Shown here: positions 6,748 through 34,503 of the stretch, one piece after another
Layout of the letters: the number at the start of each line of letters is the position of its first letter
Numbering within the stretch: position 1 is the first letter of the stretch
NCBI GenBank assembly: GCA_965200875.1
Contig: OZ241456.1
Span: 672,001 to 736,000, forward strand
Length of the DNA: 64,000 nt
Reading direction: 5' to 3'
From: Bdellovibrionales bacterium
GTDB lineage: Bacteria > Bdellovibrionota > Bdellovibrionia > Bdellovibrionales > UBA1609
Notes under the pieces: generated by a model
Told to the model about the DNA's origin: nothing
The model's input: only the letters and a program-made list of their open reading frames with translations
The model's database searches: none
Translations under genes and position numbers: made by a program

Positions 6748-8315
6748 AGTCAATGATTCCAAATAGTGCTGACTTTACACCTTTGGTTAACTCCCGCCAA
6801 AGTGCTGAGTTAGATTACTCAGCCAAGGTCGACTATGGCTTAAGCACAGATCTTTTAATGGAGACGGCTGGTGCTTTGTCTGCTCAGAAAGTTATTTCTT
6901 ATTTAAACCACCTTGATGGGAAATTGCTTGCAGGTGTAAGACGCTCATCTTTTTCTGTGATGGTTTTATGTGGCCCGGGAAATAATGGAGGTGATGGTTT
7001 GGTTCTGGCTCGTCATCTTTTATCTGAAGGGATTGCTGTAAAAGTTTTTTTGTCAAGTGTTAAACGACAGAGGAGTCATCCTCAAAACTTACTTCTGGAA
7101 AGTCAGAAATTTCGTTCTCTTGGTATAACTTTTTATCCTTTGGAGGATATGCAAAAAATAAAACAAATGGATGAAAAATGTTTACTGATTGTGGATGCTC
7201 TTTTTGGAGTGGGGTTGAACCGAAATATAGAAGGTATTTATGCAGAATTAATAAAATGGGTTAACTCAATAGACAAGCCAGTTGTTTCTCTGGACACTTC
7301 CTCTGGACTGGATGTAAATACAGGACAGATAAAAGGACAAGCAATAAAAGCAGATCTAACATTAACTTTTGGTTTGGCCAAGCCAGGATTTTACCTTATG
7401 CAGGGTCCTGAGCATACTGGTCGGATAGAAGTGTTTTCCATTGGTTTCCCTTTTCCTCTTTTAAGAGAAAAAGCCTGCACACATTTTCTTATTGATAAAT
7501 ATTGGGTATCCTCTCATCTGCCAGAGCGTAAACCAACAGATCATAAAGCCAACCACGGGCATTTATTGGTGGTGGCCGGGAGTGAAGGTATGTGGGGAGC
7601 TGGTGCATTGACAGCTCTTTCCGCTTATCGTATGGGAGCAGGTTATGTCACTTGGGCAGTCCCGTGCGCAAATGATGTAACTGGAAAAATTGGAAATATC
7701 CCCGATATGTTGACGCAGGATTTATCCGACCTCGATCTTTTCCGGAATAAAACTTCTGTCGCTATAGGGCCTGGGCTTGGAACAGGAGAGAAAACAAAAA
7801 ATCTACTGTTGGAATTAAAGAAAACAACTTTGCCAGTTGTAGTGGATGCTTCTGCTTTTTTAGTATGCGTGAAAGAAAACCTTTTTCCCCTGCCATCTCA
7901 TTGGGTGATCACACCTCATAGTGGTGAGCTGTCTCGATTGTTTGGCATTACGGGAAAACAGGTGGATCAGGATCGTTGCTCTTACGCTATGAAGGCGAGC
8001 CAGAAGACAGGGTGTCTTGTATTGCTTAAGGGGTTTCATTCCGTATTAGCACAAAGTGATAAGTGTTGGATTATTCCTGCTGGCAACTCTAGTTTAGCCA
8101 AGGCGGGAACAGGAGATGTGCTCACAGGATTTATTGGTGCTCTCATGGCGCGTTGTCTAAACACTTTTTCCGCTACTGCTGTTGCCTCTTTTGTTCACGG
8201 GCTTTTAGCGGAGGGATGGCTTGCTGAAGGAAAAGACAAGGATAGTTTAATGGCTCAGGATCTTAAAGATATCCTGCCTGTTGTTTTGAAAAAACTTAAA
8301 AAGTTATCAAAATAA
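6744..8315 (+). CDS. nnr: Bifunctional NAD(P)HX epimerase/dehydratase (YjeF)
   Basis: CGPGNNGGDG, DALFGVG, IGPGLG, ITPHSGE, AGTGDVL. Confidence 0.95.
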   Translation: MKSMIPNSADFTPLVNSRQSAELDYSAKVDYGLSTDLLMETAGALSAQKVISYLNHLDGKLLAGVRRSSFSVMVLCGPGNNGGDGLVLARHLLSEGIAVKVFLSSVKRQRSHPQNLLLESQKFRSLGITFYPLEDMQKIKQMDEKCLLIVDALFGVGLNRNIEGIYAELIKWVNSIDKPVVSLDTSSGLDVNTGQIKGQAIKADLTLTFGLAKPGFYLMQGPEHTGRIEVFSIGFPFPLLREKACTHFLIDKYWVSSHLPERKPTDHKANHGHLLVVAGSEGMWGAGALTALSAYRMGAGYVTWAVPCANDVTGKIGNIPDMLTQDLSDLDLFRNKTSVAIGPGLGTGEKTKNLLLELKKTTLPVVVDASAFLVCVKENLFPLPSHWVITPHSGELSRLFGITGKQVDQDRCSYAMKASQKTGCLVLLKGFHSVLAQSDKCWIIPAGNSSLAKAGTGDVLTGFIGALMARCLNTFSATAVASFVHGLLAEGWLAEGKDKDSLMAQDLKDILPVVLKKLKKLSK

Positions 8316-8323
8316 GGCTTTGA

Positions 8324-8830
8324 ATGTTAAAAAAAAATATCACTTTAAAAAATATGCCTACGGTTGTTGAAGAGCTGAAAGCTCTTATAAAAAAACCACA
8401 GGTGTTGTTATTGGAAGGACCTCTGGGAGTGGGGAAAACCACTTTTGTTCGTTTTTTATTGGAAGGCAACACATTGCATCGTGCTCGGAGGGCCATGAAA
8501 GCCAGCCCACAAACAAAAATACAAGTGGCTTCACCGGCTTTTGCGATTCAACATAGTTATCCTTCCTCTGATGGAGATATTTACCATATAGATCTCTATC
8601 GGTTAAAAAATGATGTTGATTTGGAATCAACAGGATTTTGGGATGTTTTTTCTGAACCGGAGACAAAGCAGATAATCATTATAGAGTGGGCGAATCGTCT
8701 TAATTCAGATTGCTTTCCGCCAGGATGGAATTATATCAGGCTGATATTTTCTTTTGGAAAAAAAGAAAATACTCGTGACATAAAGTCGGAAGTTTTTAAA
8801 CCTTGTGGTTTTTCCTTGGTGATTAAATAA
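8324..8830 (+). CDS. tsaE: tRNA threonylcarbamoyladenosine biosynthesis ATPase
   Basis: GPLGVGKTT, HIDLYRL and IIEWA; follows nnr. Confidence 0.93.
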   Translation: MLKKNITLKNMPTVVEELKALIKKPQVLLLEGPLGVGKTTFVRFLLEGNTLHRARRAMKASPQTKIQVASPAFAIQHSYPSSDGDIYHIDLYRLKNDVDLESTGFWDVFSEPETKQIIIIEWANRLNSDCFPPGWNYIRLIFSFGKKENTRDIKSEVFKPCGFSLVIK

Positions 8831-10604: not shown

Positions 10605-10847
10605 TTAATCACCACTCTTAAGTTTTTTAATTTCTTCTTCGGAAAGTCCTGTGCCTTTACAAAGAGCTTGCAAATCCACTCCAGTTTTAAGTAATTTTGC
10701 AATCAGCTCTTTTTGACCTTCCTGCCGACCTTGTTGCATGCCTTGTTGTATACCTTCCAGCCGGCCTTCCTGTATACCTTCCAGCCGGCCTTGTTGCATG
10801 CCTTGTTGCCTAGCTTCATCATACGAAGATTTTAATAATGGCATCAT
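10605..10847 (-). CDS. Putative intragenic small Rpn (RpnS-like antitoxin), 80 aa
   Basis: Internal SD GAGGAGG 8 nt before in-frame ATG 10847, just ahead of the repeat tail. Confidence 0.7.
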   Translation of the reverse strand: MMPLLKSSYDEARQQGMQQGRLEGIQEGRLEGIQQGMQQGRQEGQKELIAKLLKTGVDLQALCKGTGLSEEEIKKLKSGD

Positions 10848-11576
10848 AATTCTTCCCTCCTCTTTCACTGTGGCTTGTTCAATCTCTTTTACAATATCCC
10901 AATTAAATGCTGGATCATATCGCCGTATATAATCTACTGCTCGACCGATCAATGCTTCTCGCTCACTGGAACTAAGACCCTGACCTATCGTAAAAAGCTC
11001 TTTCACTTTTGATTCATCAAGTCGCCAGATATGTTTTAAAATATACAAAATAGGACGAGTTGTCAAATCCCTGGCCTCCTTTGACACATCTAAAGACTGA
11101 ATATTCAAGACCCGCGGACGAAAATTCAACACATTGCCTGCAAATCTCTCTTTTAATTCCACCGGGAAATTATGCAGGTACTCGTGAAAATCAAGAGGCC
11201 CTGGCCATGTCTTTTGTGTACTCTGGTTAATAAGCACAGGAAGAATAGGTATTCGTGTATTTTGATAAATCCCTGCCTGATAGATTAAAAACTGTATCAT
11301 CAAATCCAGGTCGTGTTGGCTTTTATGCTCCATTAAAAATAATATTTTAGCAGGTTTTTGAGAGCTTTTAAGAAGAGCTGAAACCAAGAGGTCCATGCGT
11401 TTTTCTTTTGCGGATTTGTCAATAAAAGTTGTGGCTTCTGTTTTAAGGGTGGTCCAATCAAAAAGTTTCATTTCCTCTTTTGAGAGAACGAGGCTTAGGA
11501 TATCCACACAATACTTTGTTTGCGAGTAGACTTCTTTGAATAAATGATCATGTAAGAATTTTTTACTTTTCTGCAT
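10605..11576 (-). CDS. Rpn/YhgA-family PD-(D/E)xK nuclease
   Basis: HDHLFK, RMDLLVS and FLMEHKS; C-terminal (Q/E)G repeats and TGLSEEEI tail. Confidence 0.9.
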   Translation of the reverse strand: MQKSKKFLHDHLFKEVYSQTKYCVDILSLVLSKEEMKLFDWTTLKTEATTFIDKSAKEKRMDLLVSALLKSSQKPAKILFLMEHKSQHDLDLMIQFLIYQAGIYQNTRIPILPVLINQSTQKTWPGPLDFHEYLHNFPVELKERFAGNVLNFRPRVLNIQSLDVSKEARDLTTRPILYILKHIWRLDESKVKELFTIGQGLSSSEREALIGRAVDYIRRYDPAFNWDIVKEIEQATVKEEGRIMMPLLKSSYDEARQQGMQQGRLEGIQEGRLEGIQQGMQQGRQEGQKELIAKLLKTGVDLQALCKGTGLSEEEIKKLKSGD

Positions 11577-17146: not shown

Positions 17147-17290
17147 TGAGTTTACTAATCTTTTGTAGCAAAAAAAGTGAGTTTACTAATCTTTTGTAGC
17201 AAAAAAAGTGAGTTTACTAATCTTTTGTAGCAAAAAAAGTGAGTTTACTAATCTTTTGTAGCAAAAAAAGTGAGTTTACTAATCTTTTGT
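17147..17290. repeat. Perfect 31-bp tandem repeat, 4.6 copies
   Basis: TGAGTTTACTAATCTTTTGTAGCAAAAAAAG at 17147, 17178, 17209, 17240 and partial at 17271. Confidence 0.97.
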
Positions 17291-27871: not shown

Positions 27872-28329
27872 TTAAATGAAAGCATCTCTGATTCTTAGTC
27901 ACTGTTATTAAGTTTTTTAATTTCTTCTTCGGAAAGTCCCGTGCCTTTGCAAAGAACCTGCAAATCCACACCATTTTTAAGTAATTTTAAAATCAGCTCT
28001 TTTTGACCTTGTTGCATACCCTGTTGCATACCCTGTTGCATACCCTGTTGCATGCCCTGTTGCATACCTTCTTGTCGCCCTTCCTCTTTAATGTGCTCTC
28101 TTATGTTCATATAACCTCCTTTTGAAAAAATACCTTTAATAACAGCCTCATGTTCCAACTTCTCCCATAATTCCTTTGTCATACCGGAAACAGACGACCA
28201 AAAATAATCTCCCACACTTAGTACTAAATCTTCTTTGTCACCAGTCCAGTTATCAAATAACGAAACTATCTCTTTCAATTCCTTCTCTTCTGCTTTGAAA
28301 GACCATACTTTTTTTAACGCACTTAAAAA
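27872..28329 (-). repeat. Imperfect tandem duplicate of the 3' part of the adjacent rpn gene
   Basis: Matches 28368-28897 except 6 fewer 12-bp repeats and several substitutions. Confidence 0.95.
27895..28110 (-). CDS. Stand-alone RpnS-like antitoxin copy, 71 aa
   Basis: AAGGAGGTTAT-ATG start retained; 5 MQQG repeats; nuclease motifs absent. Confidence 0.7.
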   Translation of the reverse strand: MNIREHIKEEGRQEGMQQGMQQGMQQGMQQGMQQGQKELILKLLKNGVDLQVLCKGTGLSEEEIKKLNNSD

Positions 28330-28390
28330 ACGAGGAAAATAAATTTAAAGAAAGTCTTTACTCCACCTTAAATGAAAGCATCTCTGATTC

Positions 28391-28678
28391 TTAGTTACTA
28401 TTATTAAGTTTTTTAATTTCTTCTTCGGAAAGTCCCGTGCTTTTGCAAAGCACCTGCAAATCCACCCCACTTTTAAGTAATTTTAAAATCAGCTCTTTTT
28501 GACCCTGTTGCATACCCTGTTGCATACCCTGTTGCATACCCTGTTGCATGCCCTGTTGCATACCCTGTTGCATACCCTGTTGCATACCCTGTTGCATACC
28601 TTGTTGCATACCCTGTTGCATACCCTGTTGCATACCTTCTTGTCGCCCTTCCTCTTTAATGTGCTCTCTTATGTTCAT
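28391..28678 (-). CDS. Putative intragenic RpnS-like antitoxin, 95 aa
   Basis: Strong internal SD AAGGAGGT before in-frame ATG 28678. Confidence 0.75.
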   Translation of the reverse strand: MNIREHIKEEGRQEGMQQGMQQGMQQGMQQGMQQGMQQGMQQGMQQGMQQGMQQGMQQGQKELILKLLKSGVDLQVLCKSTGLSEEEIKKLNNSN

Positions 28679-29446
28679 ATAACCTCCTTTTGAAAAAATA
28701 CCTTTAATAACAGCCTCATGTTCCAACTTCTCCCATAATTCCTTTGTCATACCGGAAACAGACGACCAAAAATAATCTCCCACACTTAGTACTAAATCTT
28801 CTTTGTCACCAGTCCAGTTATCAAATAACGAAACTATCTCTTTCAATTCCTTCTCTTCTGCTTTGAAAGACCATACTTTCTTTAACGCACTTAAAAAGCC
28901 ACGACTCTTAAAATTTTTGTCACAAATGGCTTTCTCTACTTTTGGATCATTGGTGTCTAAAACCCTTATCCCATAATCTAACATATCCTTTTCCAAAGAA
29001 GAAGGAATTTCCGGTAAAATACGCCCCCAAAGTCCTTTTTTGAATGATTTTGCCCACTTCCAAGGTTCTTTCCCATGATAAAATACACTAGCTATCACAA
29101 GGCAATCATCCTCTGCTTTCTCCAGACTCTTACCTATAATAAGGGTTTTGTATTTAAGAACCTGATGATACATTCGGCGACTGAAACGAGACTTATGTTC
29201 TAAAAGCAAGAAAAGCTTTGCTTTCTTCTTAGGCTGATTTTTAAGCGGAACGGAAAAAACCAAGTCTGCCCTTAAATCCTGAAAGCTGTCTTTTTCAGCC
29301 TTGAGGTTTTCCCAGTCAAAGATGGCAAACTCCTCTTCAGAAAGAACTAGCTGAAATAACTCCTTAGCAAAGCAGGGATTGGAATAGCACGCTTTAAAAA
29401 ATATATCGTGATGCCCGACAGGTAATTTTTTTGTTGTTTTTGTCAT
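28391..29446 (-). CDS. Rpn/YhgA-family PD-(D/E)xK nuclease
   Basis: HDIFFK, RADLVFS, LLLEHKS, VFYHG..PW; 11 MQQG repeats. Confidence 0.92.
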   Translation of the reverse strand: MTKTTKKLPVGHHDIFFKACYSNPCFAKELFQLVLSEEEFAIFDWENLKAEKDSFQDLRADLVFSVPLKNQPKKKAKLFLLLEHKSRFSRRMYHQVLKYKTLIIGKSLEKAEDDCLVIASVFYHGKEPWKWAKSFKKGLWGRILPEIPSSLEKDMLDYGIRVLDTNDPKVEKAICDKNFKSRGFLSALKKVWSFKAEEKELKEIVSLFDNWTGDKEDLVLSVGDYFWSSVSGMTKELWEKLEHEAVIKGIFSKGGYMNIREHIKEEGRQEGMQQGMQQGMQQGMQQGMQQGMQQGMQQGMQQGMQQGMQQGMQQGQKELILKLLKSGVDLQVLCKSTGLSEEEIKKLNNSN

Positions 29447-29585
29447 ATAAAACCTCAGAGTGAAGATAATATTTCTTATATCTTAAAGGTGTTTTTTTTT
29501 TAATACAATATTTAACTTTGTGTATGAGCAAACAGCTTTTTACATACTTCATTTTGCCGTAAAACGTTGTTCAGCCCCACATCAC

Positions 29586-29733
29586 TTTCTAAGCTACCTG
29601 TGCGACAGTAAACATTGCAAAATGGATCATCTCCCATTTCCCGACTTTCTAAGCTACCTGTGCGACAGTAAACATTGCAAAATGGATCATCTCCCATTTC
29701 CCGACTTTCTAAGCTACCTGTGCGACAGTAAAC
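29586..29733 (-). CRISPR. Orphan type I-F-like mini-array: 3 repeats, 2 identical 32-nt spacers
   Basis: 28-nt repeat GTTTACTGTCGCACAGGTAGCTTAGAAA at 29586, 29646, 29706 (I-F consensus GTTCACTGCC-N5-GGCAGCT-AGAAA); spacer GTCGGGAAATGGGAGATGATCCATTTTGCAAT. Confidence 0.88.
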
Positions 29734-29935
29734 GTATCATTATATAGCTAATCTTGTGGATGATAAAATTGATCCTTTGAGAAGGGATTTATCTACAGTA
29801 AAGGAAAGTTTGGTCAGTACGCTCTTGAGGTAGCAAAGTATGGAGCTGATCCATACGGGCTTAGGATTGTGAGTAATCACAAAGTGAAAAAACATATAAA
29901 AAAATTGCTCCGGAAATATTCAAGACTTCTTGGAT

Positions 29936-31649: not shown

Positions 31650-32251
31650 ATGAGATTGATAATTGCTTTACTTTTTTTAAGTTTAGGGGCTTTGAGCTAT
31701 GGCCAGAATGTGGCTAAGTCTACATGTAATATTGATAATTATGTCTTTTACATAAATAAGCCCGGAAATCATAGGTGCGATTTGCGCTATGCGGATTTTA
31801 GCGAGGTGAATTTGATTGGAGCGAATTTTAGCGGGGCGAATTTGCATAAGGCGAATTTGCGAGAGGCGAATTTGTATGGGGCGAATTTAAGTGGGGCGAA
31901 TTGTATGGGGCGAATTTAAGTGGGGCGAATTTGTACAGAGCGGATTTGCGAGGCGCGGTTTTGATCGGAGCAAATTTGTCCGATGCGTTTTTGTACGAAG
32001 CGGATTTGTCATTTGTGCATTTTTTTATGTGGCATTTTAGAAGGACGGATTTGAGTATGGCGAATTTGAGTAATGCGGATTTGACTGGGGCGAATTTGAG
32101 TAATGCGGATTTGTATGAGGCGAATTTGTATGGGGCGAATTTGCATAAGGCGGATTTGTCCGGCGCGGATTTGAGCTATACGAAAATTGATCCGGAATGG
32201 GCTTTTTATTTAACTTCACAAGGTATATATGGATTTCTTATTGTAAGATAA
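31650..32251 (+). pseudogene. Secreted pentapeptide-repeat protein, frameshifted near 31901
   Basis: Signal peptide and A(N/D)L repeats over two ORFs; 30-nt unit duplicated with one T missing. Confidence 0.85.
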
Positions 32252-32308
32252 TAAAGACTATTCATAATATTTCCTATTATTGAGAGAAAACCTGTTACAT
32301 TAGTTAAA

Positions 32309-32346
32309 AAAAAGCCTGTCTATCTCAGACGGGCTTTTTCGTTTTT
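32309..32346 (+). terminator. Rho-independent terminator (cassette 3' module)
   Basis: AGCCTGTCT-ATCTC-AGACGGGCT-TTTT. Confidence 0.85.
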
Positions 32347-32361
32347 AGGAAAATAGAGGCA

Positions 32362-32444
32362 TTTTTGGGCAGTTATTCTCCGGGGGAAACCGTGACCCAC
32401 CCTCCGCGATGTATGATGCCCCCCTTTTCTTTATGATTCCCTTT
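32362..32444 (+). repeat. GC-rich element, inverted homolog of 34616-34690
   Basis: TTTTGGGC..GGGGGAAA..GTG.ACCC.CC...CGCGAT.TA.....CCCC....TTATGATTCCCTTT shared. Confidence 0.7.
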
Positions 32445-32480
32445 TAAACTGACGATAGGTAAGTAAAAAAGGAGTATTTT

Positions 32481-33191
32481 ATGAAAGCTATAATTGTTTT
32501 ATTGTTTTTGAGCTTATGTTTTTTAGGTTGTAAAAAGAAAGATAGTGGTTCAAGTGGTTCAACCACCGCAGGTACTGACGCGGGCGCAGGAGCAACCACC
32601 GCCGGTGCTGAAGCTGGAGCAGGAGCAACCACCGCGGGAGCAACCACCGCCGGTGCAGGTGTTAACCCTAACACTGATTCAAGTCCAAATCCACAACCTG
32701 GCACATTTGTAGAGGTCTGCGATAGGACAAAAATAGTTAAAGATAAAATACTAATAACTGCTGATAAGCCTGATTGTGAATCTGTTACAAAAGATGACTT
32801 AAAAAAAATAACTAGATTAGACCTTCACAAAGTGAATATAGTCACATTAAAGCTAGGAGACTTTAGTGGTCTGACTTTTTTAGAAAACCTTTATTTAGGT
32901 GAAAATCAATTAATTTCCTTACCTGAAGGTGTTTTTGACGGACTGACTTCTTTAAAAAGCCTTCATTTATGGGGGAATAGATTAAACAGCTTACCAAAAG
33001 GTGTTTTTAAAGACCTGACTGCTTTGCAGTATATGGCTTTATATGAAAATCAATTAACTTCCTTACCTGAAGGTGTTTTTGATGGACTGACTTCTTTATC
33101 GAGACTTATTCTAGGAAGTAATCAGTTCCCCGATGAGGAGGTAGCTCGTATTAAAGCTGAGTATGATAATATTCCTTATCTAATCTTTTGA
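32481..33191 (+). CDS. Leucine-rich-repeat lipoprotein
   Basis: Lipobox FLGC, A/G/T linker, 24-aa LRRs LxLxxNQLxSLPEGVFDGLT. Confidence 0.92.
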   Translation: MKAIIVLLFLSLCFLGCKKKDSGSSGSTTAGTDAGAGATTAGAEAGAGATTAGATTAGAGVNPNTDSSPNPQPGTFVEVCDRTKIVKDKILITADKPDCESVTKDDLKKITRLDLHKVNIVTLKLGDFSGLTFLENLYLGENQLISLPEGVFDGLTSLKSLHLWGNRLNSLPKGVFKDLTALQYMALYENQLTSLPEGVFDGLTSLSRLILGSNQFPDEEVARIKAEYDNIPYLIF

Positions 33192-33227
33192 TTAACTTGT
33201 TTGATTCTCATAATTCCTGTTGTTGTG

Positions 33228-33266
33228 AAAAGCCTGGCCCATATCCTGTCGGGCTTTTTCGTTTTT
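33228..33266 (+). terminator. Rho-independent terminator (cassette 3' module)
   Basis: AGCCTGGC...GTCGGGCT-TTTTCGTTTTT. Confidence 0.75.
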
Positions 33267-33391
33267 AGGAAATAGAGGTGTTATAATTCCCTTTATATTT
33301 TCGTGTAAAGATTACACAGGGTTATTTTTTATTTAGTATTTTTCATAAAACTATGTATATTATTCAGCGAAACAAAAAAAGGAGGTCACTA

Positions 33392-33868
33392 ATGAAATTA
33401 ATAATTACTTTACTATTTTTAAGCTTAGGAGCTTTGAGCTATGGCCAGAATGAGGCTGAATGTAATATTGATAATTATAAAGACTATATCTATACGCCCG
33501 GAAATCATCAGTGCGATTTGGAAGGGGCATTTTTGTTCAGAATGAATTTGAGAGGGGCAAATTTGTACAATGCGTATTTGCAAAGAGTGAATTTGTACAG
33601 AGCGAATTTGAGTAATGCGGATTTGCGTATTGCAAATTTGAGTAATGCGGGTTTGTGGGCGACGGATTTGACTGGGGCGGATTTTACCGGGGCGAATTTG
33701 TATGGGGCGAATTTGCGTAGTGCGAATTTGCGTAATGCGATTTTTACTGGGGCGAATTTGAGCAATGCGAATTTTACCAATGCGAAGGTTGATCCGGATT
33801 TGGGTGCTTATTTAACCTCACAAGGTATAAGTGGGTTTGTTGTTGTTGAAAATGAAGGAGATAAATAA
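33392..33868 (+). CDS. Secreted pentapeptide-repeat protein
   Basis: SD GGAGGT, signal peptide, CNIDNY...HQCDL cap, A(N/D)(L/F) repeats. Confidence 0.92.
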
Positions 33869-34503
33869 TGAGATTGATAATTACTTTACTGTTTTTAAGC
33901 ATAGGAGCTTTGAGCTATGGCCAGAATGAGGCTGAGACTACCTGTAATATTGATAATTATCGAGACTATATCTATACGCCCGGAGTGCATAATTGTCATT
34001 TGGGCATGGCGAATTTAACCTGGGAGGATTTTTTTCAGGCGAATTTACGAGGGGCGTATTTGTTTCATGCTTATTTGAGAGCGGCGAATTTTACCGGCGC
34101 GGATTTGAGAGAGGCAAATTTTATCGTTGCGGATTTGATCGATGTGAATTTTACCGGCGCGGATTTGAGAGGCACGAAGTTGAAATGGGCGAATTTATAT
34201 ATGGCTGATTTAGAGAAGGCGAATTTGAGCGGAGCTAATTTGTACAATGCGAATTTGTATAAGGCGTATTTGCGAGAGGCGAATTTGGACGGGGCGGATT
34301 TGAGAGGTGCGAATTTTGGTAGGGCAAATTTAAGTATGGCTGATTTTGCTAAAGCGGATTTGAGAGGGGCGAATTTGACCTATGCTGATTTGACTAAGGT
34401 GAATATGACCGATGCGAAAGTTGATCCTATCATGGCAACTTATTTAACCTCACAAGGTATAAGTGGTTTTGTTGTTGTTGAAAATGAGGAAAAAGAAGAA
34501 TAA
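33868..34503 (+). CDS. Secreted pentapeptide-repeat protein
   Basis: Same N- and C-caps as neighbours, longer repeat region. Confidence 0.92.
   Translation: MRLIITLLFLSIGALSYGQNEAETTCNIDNYRDYIYTPGVHNCHLGMANLTWEDFFQANLRGAYLFHAYLRAANFTGADLREANFIVADLIDVNFTGADLRGTKLKWANLYMADLEKANLSGANLYNANLYKAYLREANLDGADLRGANFGRANLSMADFAKADLRGANLTYADLTKVNMTDAKVDPIMATYLTSQGISGFVVVENEEKEE

Follow-up and report, generated by a model that had tools for sequence, protein, structure and literature searches.

Does a short CRISPR array that lies just upstream of an rpn toxin-antitoxin gene, on the same strand, control that gene, or is it a remnant of a larger array? The initial annotation of the window (the whole 64,000-nt stretch of DNA analysed here) proposed a CRISPR-coupled Rpn module, with a decayed array as its fallback. 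The evidence assembled below favours the fallback: the mini-array is most likely an ordinary decaying orphan array, not a new CRISPR-controlled toxin switch.

Anatomy of the mini-array

The annotated array is real and consists of three identical 28-nt repeats and two identical 32-nt spacers in a regular 28 + 32 nt periodicity (TRF: period 60, 2.5 copies, 100% matches). Its crRNA sense is the minus strand, co-oriented with rpn as had been proposed. The parts are as follows, in crRNA order.

29706..29733, minus strand: repeat 1 (first in the crRNA sense), CRISPR-DR4, 35.0 bits, with T at positions 9 and 18 compared with the host repeat
29674..29705, minus strand: spacer copy 1, 32 nt, same sequence as spacer copy 2
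29646..29673, minus strand: repeat 2, CRISPR-DR4
29614..29645, minus strand: spacer copy 2, 32 nt, for which all target searches were empty
29586..29613, minus strand: repeat 3, CRISPR-DR4, abutting the rpn leader

All three repeats score 35.0 bits against Rfam RF01317 (CRISPR-DR4, the I-F repeat family), which is exactly the gathering score and places them in the family, versus 46.8 bits for the repeat of the host's main array. The exact variant repeat was absent from the genome_contigs collection. Three C-to-T changes had been reported for these repeats. The change at position 4 is also present in all 39 host-array repeats, which leaves positions 9 and 18 as the only changes specific to the mini-array. 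The private changes hit stem cytosines, are the same in all three repeats, and keep G-U pairing on the crRNA strand; the 8-nt 5′ handle (CUUAGAAA) is unaltered. The suggestion that such G-U pairs are tolerated is doubtful: the canonical hairpin, at -8.6 kcal/mol in the main repeat, is predicted to reach only -1.0 kcal/mol here and is less stable than a register-shifted alternative (-5.5 kcal/mol), which is now the minimum-energy fold. In fold predictions made for free RNA only, the canonical Cas6f hairpin accounts for 69% of the ensemble of the main repeat versus 0.1% of that of the mini-array repeat, and the latter is not predicted to form the stable 5-bp Cas6f hairpin expected of an I-F repeat. 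The Cas6f hairpin of the variant is therefore predicted to be impaired, with the shifted fold favored. By our own arithmetic, the chance that two random GC-to-AT changes both preserve pairing is about 4/14 × 3/13 = 0.07; this figure counts against decay and is suggestive but weak. The mini-array also lacks the unique spacers expected of an I-F array, both of its spacers being identical.

The neighboring rpn gene

The features downstream of repeat 3, all on the minus strand, are the following.

29447..29585, minus strand: rpn leader, 139 nt, 100% identical to the interval between the last main-array repeat and rpn
28391..29446, minus strand: rpn, 351 aa, Transposase_31/YhgA-like PD-(D/E)XK nuclease with 11 xQGM units, paralog of C1:1012302-1013285 and C1:998069-999040
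28502..28636, minus strand: 12-nt tandem repeat, 11.2 copies, encoding the QQGM tetrapeptides of the Rpn C-terminal (RpnS) domain
27891..28331, minus strand: tandem duplicate of part of rpn (the 3′ end), with 98.9% identity to the corresponding part of the main-array rpn
27895-28278, minus strand: stand-alone RpnS-like open reading frame (ORF) within the partial rpn copy, 127 aa, 5 xQGM units

Identification of the gene as rpn was borne out by a match of the ORF at 28391-29446 (minus strand) to PF04754 (E value of 1.1e-21, profile positions 2 to 178 of 203), and on inspection its translation shows D...E-H-K residues in the expected order. The array does lie upstream on the same strand as described, but rpn begins 139 nt after the last repeat rather than 140. 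Tetrapeptide repeats are a feature of Rpn (PMC10400941), and the three close rpn paralogs of this genome carry 11, 5, and 4 xQGM units. The family is amplified in the genome, with 32 tblastn high-scoring segment pairs (HSPs), of which 11 are near full length.

The array-rpn junction is shared with the host's intact I-F locus

The reported absence of cas genes holds locally, and no cas fragments were found near the mini-array, but the genome contains a complete I-F operon (cas1, cas2-3, csy1-4) and a 39-repeat array at C1:1001433-1012162, ~310 kb from the mini-array. Cas1, Cas2-3, Csy1, Csy2, Csy3, and Csy4 all match Pfam (E values of 8e-17 to 1e-134), and the host Cas6f is encoded at C1:1009080-1009658. 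The initial annotation had called for a hunt for I-F cas genes elsewhere and had taken a host without I-F Cas as evidence against its proposal; because the host carries a full I-F system, that situation does not arise, and cognate cas genes exist, though none at the locus itself. In the main array, the 39 repeats are all identical, whereas none of the 38 spacers recurs, and its repeat is identical to that of many Gammaproteobacteria.

The junction at which the last repeat passes directly into GTGATGTGGGGCTGAAC..., together with the whole 139-nt leader, is 100% identical between the mini-array and the main-array trailer. The downstream rpn genes share ~96% DNA identity outside the tetrapeptide repeats, with ~40 mismatches in ~1,050 nt that are patchily distributed (some 200-nt stretches have none). 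Since the junction and the identical leader are common to both loci, the adjacency of array and rpn is by descent, and the linkage of mini-array and rpn was inherited from the main locus by segmental duplication.

The genome holds three copies of the leader-rpn unit. One follows the last of the 39 main-array repeats, beside the intact cas1/cas2-3/csy1-4 operon. Another lies upstream of cas1 (C1:997933-999061) and is 98.4% identical to the main unit over 1,141 columns, so that two rpn units of 98% identity flank the main CRISPR-Cas locus. In this copy, a duplicated cas1 5′ fragment is joined directly to leader and rpn: the leader is present from about its 20th base onward, with no repeat in front, and is preceded by a duplicate of the 26 nt upstream of cas1 plus the first ~140 nt of cas1 (C1:997779-997932), in which amino acids 1 to 31 of Cas1 are 100% identical. 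It looks as if cas1 through the array might have been deleted from a duplicate locus. The third copy is the one in the window, which retains three repeats.

The upstream flank

Two features lie just ahead of repeat 1.

29739..29766, minus strand: sigma-70-like promoter match (TTATCA, 16-nt spacer, TATAAT; 10/12), a consensus match only, ending 5 nt before repeat 1
29742..29818, strand not assigned: fragment of multicopy host sequence, 96% identical to C1:69114-69190 and C1:512282-512358

As described initially, the mini-array has no AT-rich leader. The AT content is 64.5% in the 200 nt upstream, 63% in contig C1, and 72% in the main-array leader, and BLAST detected no homology between the upstream sequence and that leader. 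The homology of the multicopy fragment stops 8 nt before repeat 1, which marks the upstream breakpoint of the duplicated segment. Phage-like remnant DNA had been reported on this side, a description that we could not support: the flank is a patchwork of multicopy host-sequence fragments followed by pentapeptide and leucine-rich repeat (LRR) genes, and its sole phage-family match is a weak spanin (E value of 0.002).

The promoter scan returned 8 sites in the region, with 7.0 expected from shuffles. It showed no terminator-like site between the mini-array and rpn and no sigma-70-type match within the 139-nt rpn leader; a weak promoter of rpn's own could escape so simple a scan.

Searches for a spacer target

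The initial annotation proposed looking for a target with a CC protospacer-adjacent motif (PAM) in the genome and in viral collections; none was found. The spacer has no other occurrence in the genome at up to 8 mismatches, and a CC PAM with a seed match occurs at 0 sites in the whole genome, versus 1 to 39 sites for each of 20 shuffled spacers. Nor did the spacer surpass its shuffled versions in complementarity to the rpn leader, the rpn body, and cas promoters or intergenic regions. Within the rpn leader, its best seed run covers 5 positions and lies beside CT, not CC, and 75 of 200 shuffles equaled or exceeded it. The spacer was found at up to 3 mismatches in 0 of 383 other genomes of the order and gave 0 matches in an exact scan of viral contigs. 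BLAST against phages and plasmids gave only chance-level matches of 17 to 29 nt (E value of ≥0.2).

Relatives and other samples

Linkage of rpn and a mini-array in related genomes had been suggested as a test of the coupled module. I-F repeats occur in 2 of 14 other genomes of the genus, and neither has the arrangement, so its position is not conserved there. In one relative (G009), cas1 and cas2-3 fragments adjoin two degenerate repeats, the same kind of decay, while in another (G011) the I-F locus is full but rpn is absent from the 19.9 kb examined, which ends ~4.4 kb beyond the array. Other species yielded 27 arrays built on the repeat of the host's main array, and a single one of them has even a weak Rpn-like match within 3 kb. 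The gdh-pyrD-HU neighborhood is kept in G009, G011, and a third relative, G003; in G003 alone, HU is followed by an rpn paralog (54% amino acid identity, opposite orientation relative to HU, no repeats), and synteny is therefore uninformative on origin.

Exact-match scans of metagenomes, which are weak negatives, gave 0 matches each for the repeat-leader junction and for the leader. Sequencing runs were compared through their contigs, which break at repeats and so yield neither repeat-unit counts nor transcripts. Contigs of run X1 bridge both the leader with the variant repeat and repeat 1 with its upstream flank; X1 does not count as independent, because the genome may come from that very sample. 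Short contigs contain the main-type repeat-leader junction in run X5 and a related junction in run X4.

A probable relic of the main-array trailer and the alternatives

Taken together, these comparisons indicate that the mini-array derives, as a paralogous copy, from the end of the host I-F array at its trailer, that it was duplicated with leader and rpn, and that it is probably a decaying, nonfunctional relic. Ectopic duplication or gene conversion among the amplified rpn paralogs may have taken the last repeats along, a direction and mechanism that we infer. The repeats would later have gained two GC-to-AT changes under relaxed selection, and slippage would then have doubled one 60-nt repeat-spacer unit; such slippage would explain why spacers and repeats alike are identical, and the identity of the repeats to one another would make it recent. 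Cas6f would be expected to process any mini-array transcript poorly, and no target for such an RNA was detected, so that rpn is presumably regulated independently of it. Several points go against a relic: a bound protein could make even an intrinsically unstable hairpin fold, the host I-F system could act in trans on the mini-array, the 5′ handle is intact, a promoter-like site directly precedes repeat 1, and no terminator-like site separates the array from rpn.

The action in trans just mentioned is the least improbable of the functional readings, although we consider it unlikely. Transcribed from the promoter-like site, the mini-array would be processed by the host Cas6f and loaded onto Csy proteins for defense against an unsampled mobile element. 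The complete host system, the canonical 32-nt spacer and 5′ handle, and the position of the promoter-like site 5 nt before repeat 1 are compatible with this, and isolated I-F arrays acting in trans are known in Pseudomonas (PMC13142298). Against it stand a canonical hairpin predicted to be nearly abolished and outcompeted, an Rfam score no higher than the threshold, the missing leader, a duplicated spacer that brings no added information, and the empty target searches in every collection covered. A CreTA- or CreR-like element, whose crRNA-like RNA would guide the Csy complex by partial complementarity to repress rpn or a cas promoter, is more improbable still, to the point that we give it very little credence. 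Degenerate repeats do adjoin a toxin-antitoxin gene here, and some I-F1 mini-arrays are regulatory, with cargo toxin-antitoxin genes among their possible targets (PMC10120712). However, the genome offers no CC-plus-seed site where every shuffled spacer found at least one, the seed run in the rpn leader is matched or bettered by over a third of shuffles, the spacer is full length and unshortened, the mini-array sits outside the cas operon, its junction is inherited from the main array, and the rpn copy upstream of cas1 shares the leader (from about the 20th base) without any repeat. The copied junction, the lack of a CC-plus-seed site, and shuffle-level complementarity leave the proposed CRISPR-coupled Rpn module unsupported.

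Coupling might instead operate by cotranscription at both loci: array transcripts would read through into rpn, the mRNA of which would receive its 5′ end when Cas6f cuts at the last repeat, so that Rpn expression would follow CRISPR transcription. Strand and 139-nt spacing are equal at the two loci, the leader is free of terminator-like and sigma-70-type sites, and the X5 and X4 contigs likewise join repeat to leader. We nevertheless think this quite unlikely, given that the copy upstream of cas1 keeps its leader with no repeat ahead, that the full I-F locus of G011 has no rpn as far as ~4.4 kb past the array, that 26 of the 27 same-repeat arrays in other species have no Rpn-like match within 3 kb, and that rpn may have a weak promoter of its own. 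A broader version, in which rpn paralogs are portable recombination handles that duplicate and move CRISPR-Cas pieces within this small genome and the array-to-rpn junction is a functional unit whose read-through and Cas6f cleavage feed rpn expression, seems equally improbable to us.

Relation to known systems

PMC10120712 discusses orphan or degenerate arrays as well as standalone repeat units that spurious duplication has produced. The mini-array resembles them in being short, away from cas genes, with degenerate repeats, no leader, and no detectable target, and in occurring in one genome only among those searched. It differs in that its source can be pinpointed: the junction at the trailer of the host's own intact array was copied along with rpn. 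With regulatory I-F1 mini-arrays and CreTA (PMC10120712) it shares repeat-like sequences flanking a spacer, divergent repeats, and an adjacent toxin-antitoxin gene, but it lacks a PAM-flanked partial promoter target, its spacer has the full length of 32 nt, and it is neither within the cas locus nor conserved. RNA anti-CRISPRs (Racrs; PMC10651486) occur as solitary repeat units, carried by phages or other mobile elements; the mini-array resembles them in mimicking repeats away from a CRISPR locus, with the potential to bind Cas6f or Cas7f. We rejected a Racr on anatomy: the units are normal repeat-spacer units of host-array origin in chromosomal debris without phage genes.

The rpn locus itself has much in common with known RpnL/RpnS gene-within-gene toxin-antitoxin defense systems, including the PF04754 domain, a variable number of C-terminal tetrapeptides, a separate small downstream homolog of the C terminus, paralogs arising by duplication rather than transposition, and clustering with defense genes (PMC10400941, PMC5350276). 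The difference is that here the duplicated unit took CRISPR-Cas pieces along: one copy has repeats, another a cas1 fragment. Mentions of CRISPR in PMC10400941 concern other matters.

A degenerate mini-array beside a toxin gene thus calls for caution, as it resembles a CreTA-type module; in this genome the neighborhood is explained by descent from an array trailer. The cas1 stub at the second rpn copy shows the same locus being copied and eroded. The window therefore offers a traceable case of the birth of an orphan array, in which segmental duplication through an amplified, recombination-prone family of rpn defense genes carried along the end of a CRISPR array.

Mini-array upstream of rpn

Three mutually identical 28-nt repeats (GTTTACTGTCGCACAGGTAGCTTAGAAA, minus strand), separated by two identical 32-nt spacers, lie upstream of an rpn gene on the same strand and end 139 nt before its ORF. 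TRF described the mini-array as 2.5 copies of a period-60 unit with 100% matches, and Rfam assigned every repeat to the I-F repeat family CRISPR-DR4, its score (35.0 bits) being exactly the gathering score. Coordinates, TRF, and Rfam thus agree with the arrangement described in the initial annotation, and with the Rpn family match they establish it as real and well beyond chance. The features are as follows.

29706-29733, 29646-29673, and 29586-29613, minus strand: identical 28-nt repeats of the mini-array
28391-29446, minus strand: window rpn, a 351-aa ORF, Transposase_31/YhgA-like (Rpn family), E 1.1e-21
27891-28331, downstream of window rpn: tandem partial copy of the rpn 3′ end, 98.9% identical to the 3′ end of the main copy
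27895-28278, minus strand: stand-alone RpnS-like ORF, 127 aa, 5 xQGM units

Elsewhere, at 17147-17290, the window holds a perfect tandem repeat (31-nt unit, 4.6 copies, 100% matches).

The host I-F system

The window corresponds to C1:672001-736000. A fuzzy repeat search of the 1.87-Mb genome recovered 39 further copies at C1:1009856-1012162, all of the sequence GTTTACTGCCGCACAGGCAGCTTAGAAA, which delimit 38 unique spacers (the main array). Full-length cas1, cas2-3, csy1, csy2, csy3, and csy4 lie immediately upstream (Pfam E 8e-17 to 1e-134), and the host I-F system is therefore intact. The statement that cas genes are absent is correct for the mini-array locus but not genome-wide; the proposed check for I-F cas genes elsewhere found this full operon beside the main array. 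Likewise, of three C-to-T changes ascribed to the mini-array repeats, only two, at positions 9 and 18, are confined to it, because all 39 main repeats carry T at position 4, the host's normal state.

Exact copies of the canonical host repeat stand in 27 loci of genome_contigs, most from Gammaproteobacteria; 1 of the 27 has a weak Rpn-C-terminal-like match within 3 kb. Its 28 nt match, letter for letter, the I-F repeats of many Gammaproteobacteria, among them Pseudoalteromonas, Methylovulum, Photorhabdus, and a Francisella MAG. A Csy4 search of 61 sampled genomes from the host's family turned up 2 carriers, this genome included. The repeat's prevalence in Gammaproteobacteria and the Csy4 count suggest that the system was probably acquired horizontally.

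The array-leader-rpn junction is shared with the main array

The ORF directly after the main array, on the array's strand (C1:1012302-1013285), encodes another Rpn (PF04754, E 2.7e-21) with 90.6% amino acid identity to the window Rpn (tblastn). Alignment showed that the last repeat abuts the same bases at both loci and that the 139-nt rpn leader, from last repeat to ATG, is 100% identical between them. The arrangement of mini-array and rpn is thus a paralogous copy of the main-array trailer junction, and the two junctions share common descent. Directly after the main-array rpn comes a Fic/DOC-domain gene (C1:1013359-1014552; minus within the analyzed segment, 1357-2553); several Fic paralogs occur elsewhere in the genome, as does a 96-nt duplicated fragment near this gene.

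Upstream of cas1, at C1:997933-999061, the leader-plus-rpn unit occurs a third time. This copy, on the same strand, matches the main unit at 98.4% identity over 1,141 columns, so that near-identical rpn units flank the main CRISPR-Cas locus on both sides (the bracketed stretch is C1:997779-1013306). No repeat stands ahead of the third unit; it is preceded by a duplicate of the 26 nt upstream of cas1 plus its first ~140 nt (C1:997779-997932), which is 91% identical to C1:1001407-1001572 with a 12-nt gap and 100% identical in cas1 residues 1 to 31. The third copy looks like the remainder to be expected had a duplicate of the complete locus been deleted from early cas1 through the array end. A whole-genome search (E < 1) returned no further cas fragments beyond two chance-level matches, and the window copy is therefore without cas remains.

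rpn itself is heavily amplified in the genome (32 tblastn HSPs, 11 near full length). A second, distant paralog (34% amino acid identity) lies in the window at 10608-11552, minus strand, and carries a period-24 tandem repeat (10740-10804). Compared with the other two copies, the window rpn has ~40 mismatches in ~1,050 nt, not counting the spacers and the tetrapeptide-repeat region; these mismatches are unevenly spread (6 to 7 in some 50-nt bins, zero across a 200-nt stretch), from which we infer gene conversion among rpn paralogs. The xQGM units number 11 in the window rpn, 5 in the main rpn, and 4 in the copy upstream of cas1. The C terminus of the RpnS-like ORF is identical to that of the main-array Rpn (5 units), not to that of the adjacent Rpn (11 units), and by the published repeat-number rule this ORF would match the distant main-array copy. 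These traits agree with published descriptions (PMC10400941; PMC5350276), in which Rpn genes encode within themselves an RpnS antitoxin domain whose four-residue repeats vary in number, have separate RpnSs genes downstream, spread by duplication and not transposition, and cluster with defence genes.

Relatives and other samples

Of 14 other genus genomes, 13 had rpn DNA matches, as against 0 of 26 genomes from outside the genus; I-F repeats (≤3 mismatches) occurred in 3 of 15 genus genomes, this one counted. The suggested linkage of rpn to mini-arrays recurred in neither of the two other genus genomes with I-F repeats. One, G011, has a full I-F operon with 39 repeats and no Rpn match in the 19.9 kb examined, which end ~4.4 kb past the array. 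Another, G009, retains a decayed locus:

G009, C1:1024000-1040000, about 7146-8330 within: cas1 and cas2-3 fragments that lead straight on to two degenerate repeats and a single spacer

The repeat changes there are also GC>AT, and an rpn paralog downstream is distant (24% identity) and on the opposite strand. These fragments and degenerate repeats indicate that I-F loci decay to mini-arrays in the host's genus.

The exact variant repeat was not found in genome_contigs, and the variant mini-array is covered by contigs of a single sequencing run, X1, possibly the source sample. A 599-nt contig of run X5, which ends in a repeat, joins repeat to rpn leader with 2 differences in the matched stretch, and a short contig of run X4 also joins a repeat to this leader; the main-type junction is therefore present in other samples.

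Is the mini-array functional?

The initial annotation proposed a CRISPR-coupled Rpn module; that proposal finds no support, as the junction is copied from the main trailer and the spacer has no detectable PAM-flanked target. Spacer searches gave no match elsewhere in the genome (≤8 mismatches), none in viral contigs (exact search), and chance-level partial matches only in phages and plasmids; at ≤3 mismatches the spacer was absent from all 383 other genomes searched in the order. Genome-wide, 0 sites combined a CC PAM with a perfect seed (positions 1 to 5 and 7 to 8), while 20 shuffled spacers gave 1 to 39 each. In the rpn leader and rpn 5′ end, the best seed run covered 5 positions, beside CT, and was equaled or exceeded in 75 of 200 shuffles; other regulatory regions did no better.

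Repeat quality is also degraded. The canonical 5-bp Cas6f stem is predicted at −8.6 kcal/mol (69% of the ensemble) in the host repeat and −1.0 kcal/mol (0.1%) in the mini-array repeat, whose predicted minimum fold is a register-shifted 4-bp hairpin plus outer helix (−5.5 kcal/mol); the covariance-model score falls from 46.8 to 35.0 bits. The absence of an AT-rich leader was borne out, with AT content near the genome average and no homology to the main-array leader. A 77-nt fragment of multicopy host sequence ends 8 nt before repeat 1, and farther upstream come more fragments and then pentapeptide-repeat and LRR genes; with a weak spanin match (E 0.002) as the sole PHROGs hit, the description of this flank as phage-like remnant is unsupported. 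The pentapeptide-repeat/LRR run (window 31650-34503) starts ~2 kb upstream of the mini-array; it is part of a very large paralog family, and partial DNA matches to it are numerous throughout the genome.

Several features argue against a pure relic: both private changes are common to all three repeats and keep G-U pairing (chance ~0.07 by our arithmetic), the 5′ handle is intact, and Cas proteins are at hand in trans. On these grounds, use of a mini-array crRNA in trans is unlikely but keeps some weight. Co-transcription that would couple array and rpn is less probable still. No terminator-like site separates the two, and a sigma-70-like candidate site (10/12) ends 5 nt before repeat 1, in a region with 8 such sites versus 7.0 in shuffles, no excess. 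A CreTA-like regulator, in which a CRISPR-like RNA would control the toxin, is very improbable, as no promoter was found to offer the partial, PAM-flanked target by which regulatory mini-arrays are defined.

We favor an origin by copying, with the mini-array probably a decaying relic. An ectopic duplication, or gene conversion between rpn paralogs, may have brought the array end to the window site; the two GC>AT repeat changes would have followed under relaxed selection, and slippage may later have doubled a 60-nt unit, yielding identical spacers. The closest known counterparts are degenerate or orphan arrays and repeat units duplicated spuriously (PMC10120712), set against the known tendency of rpn to duplicate (PMC10400941). 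The mini-array thus offers a traceable case of orphan-array origin, and a warning that adjacency to a toxin gene should not be taken for coupling.
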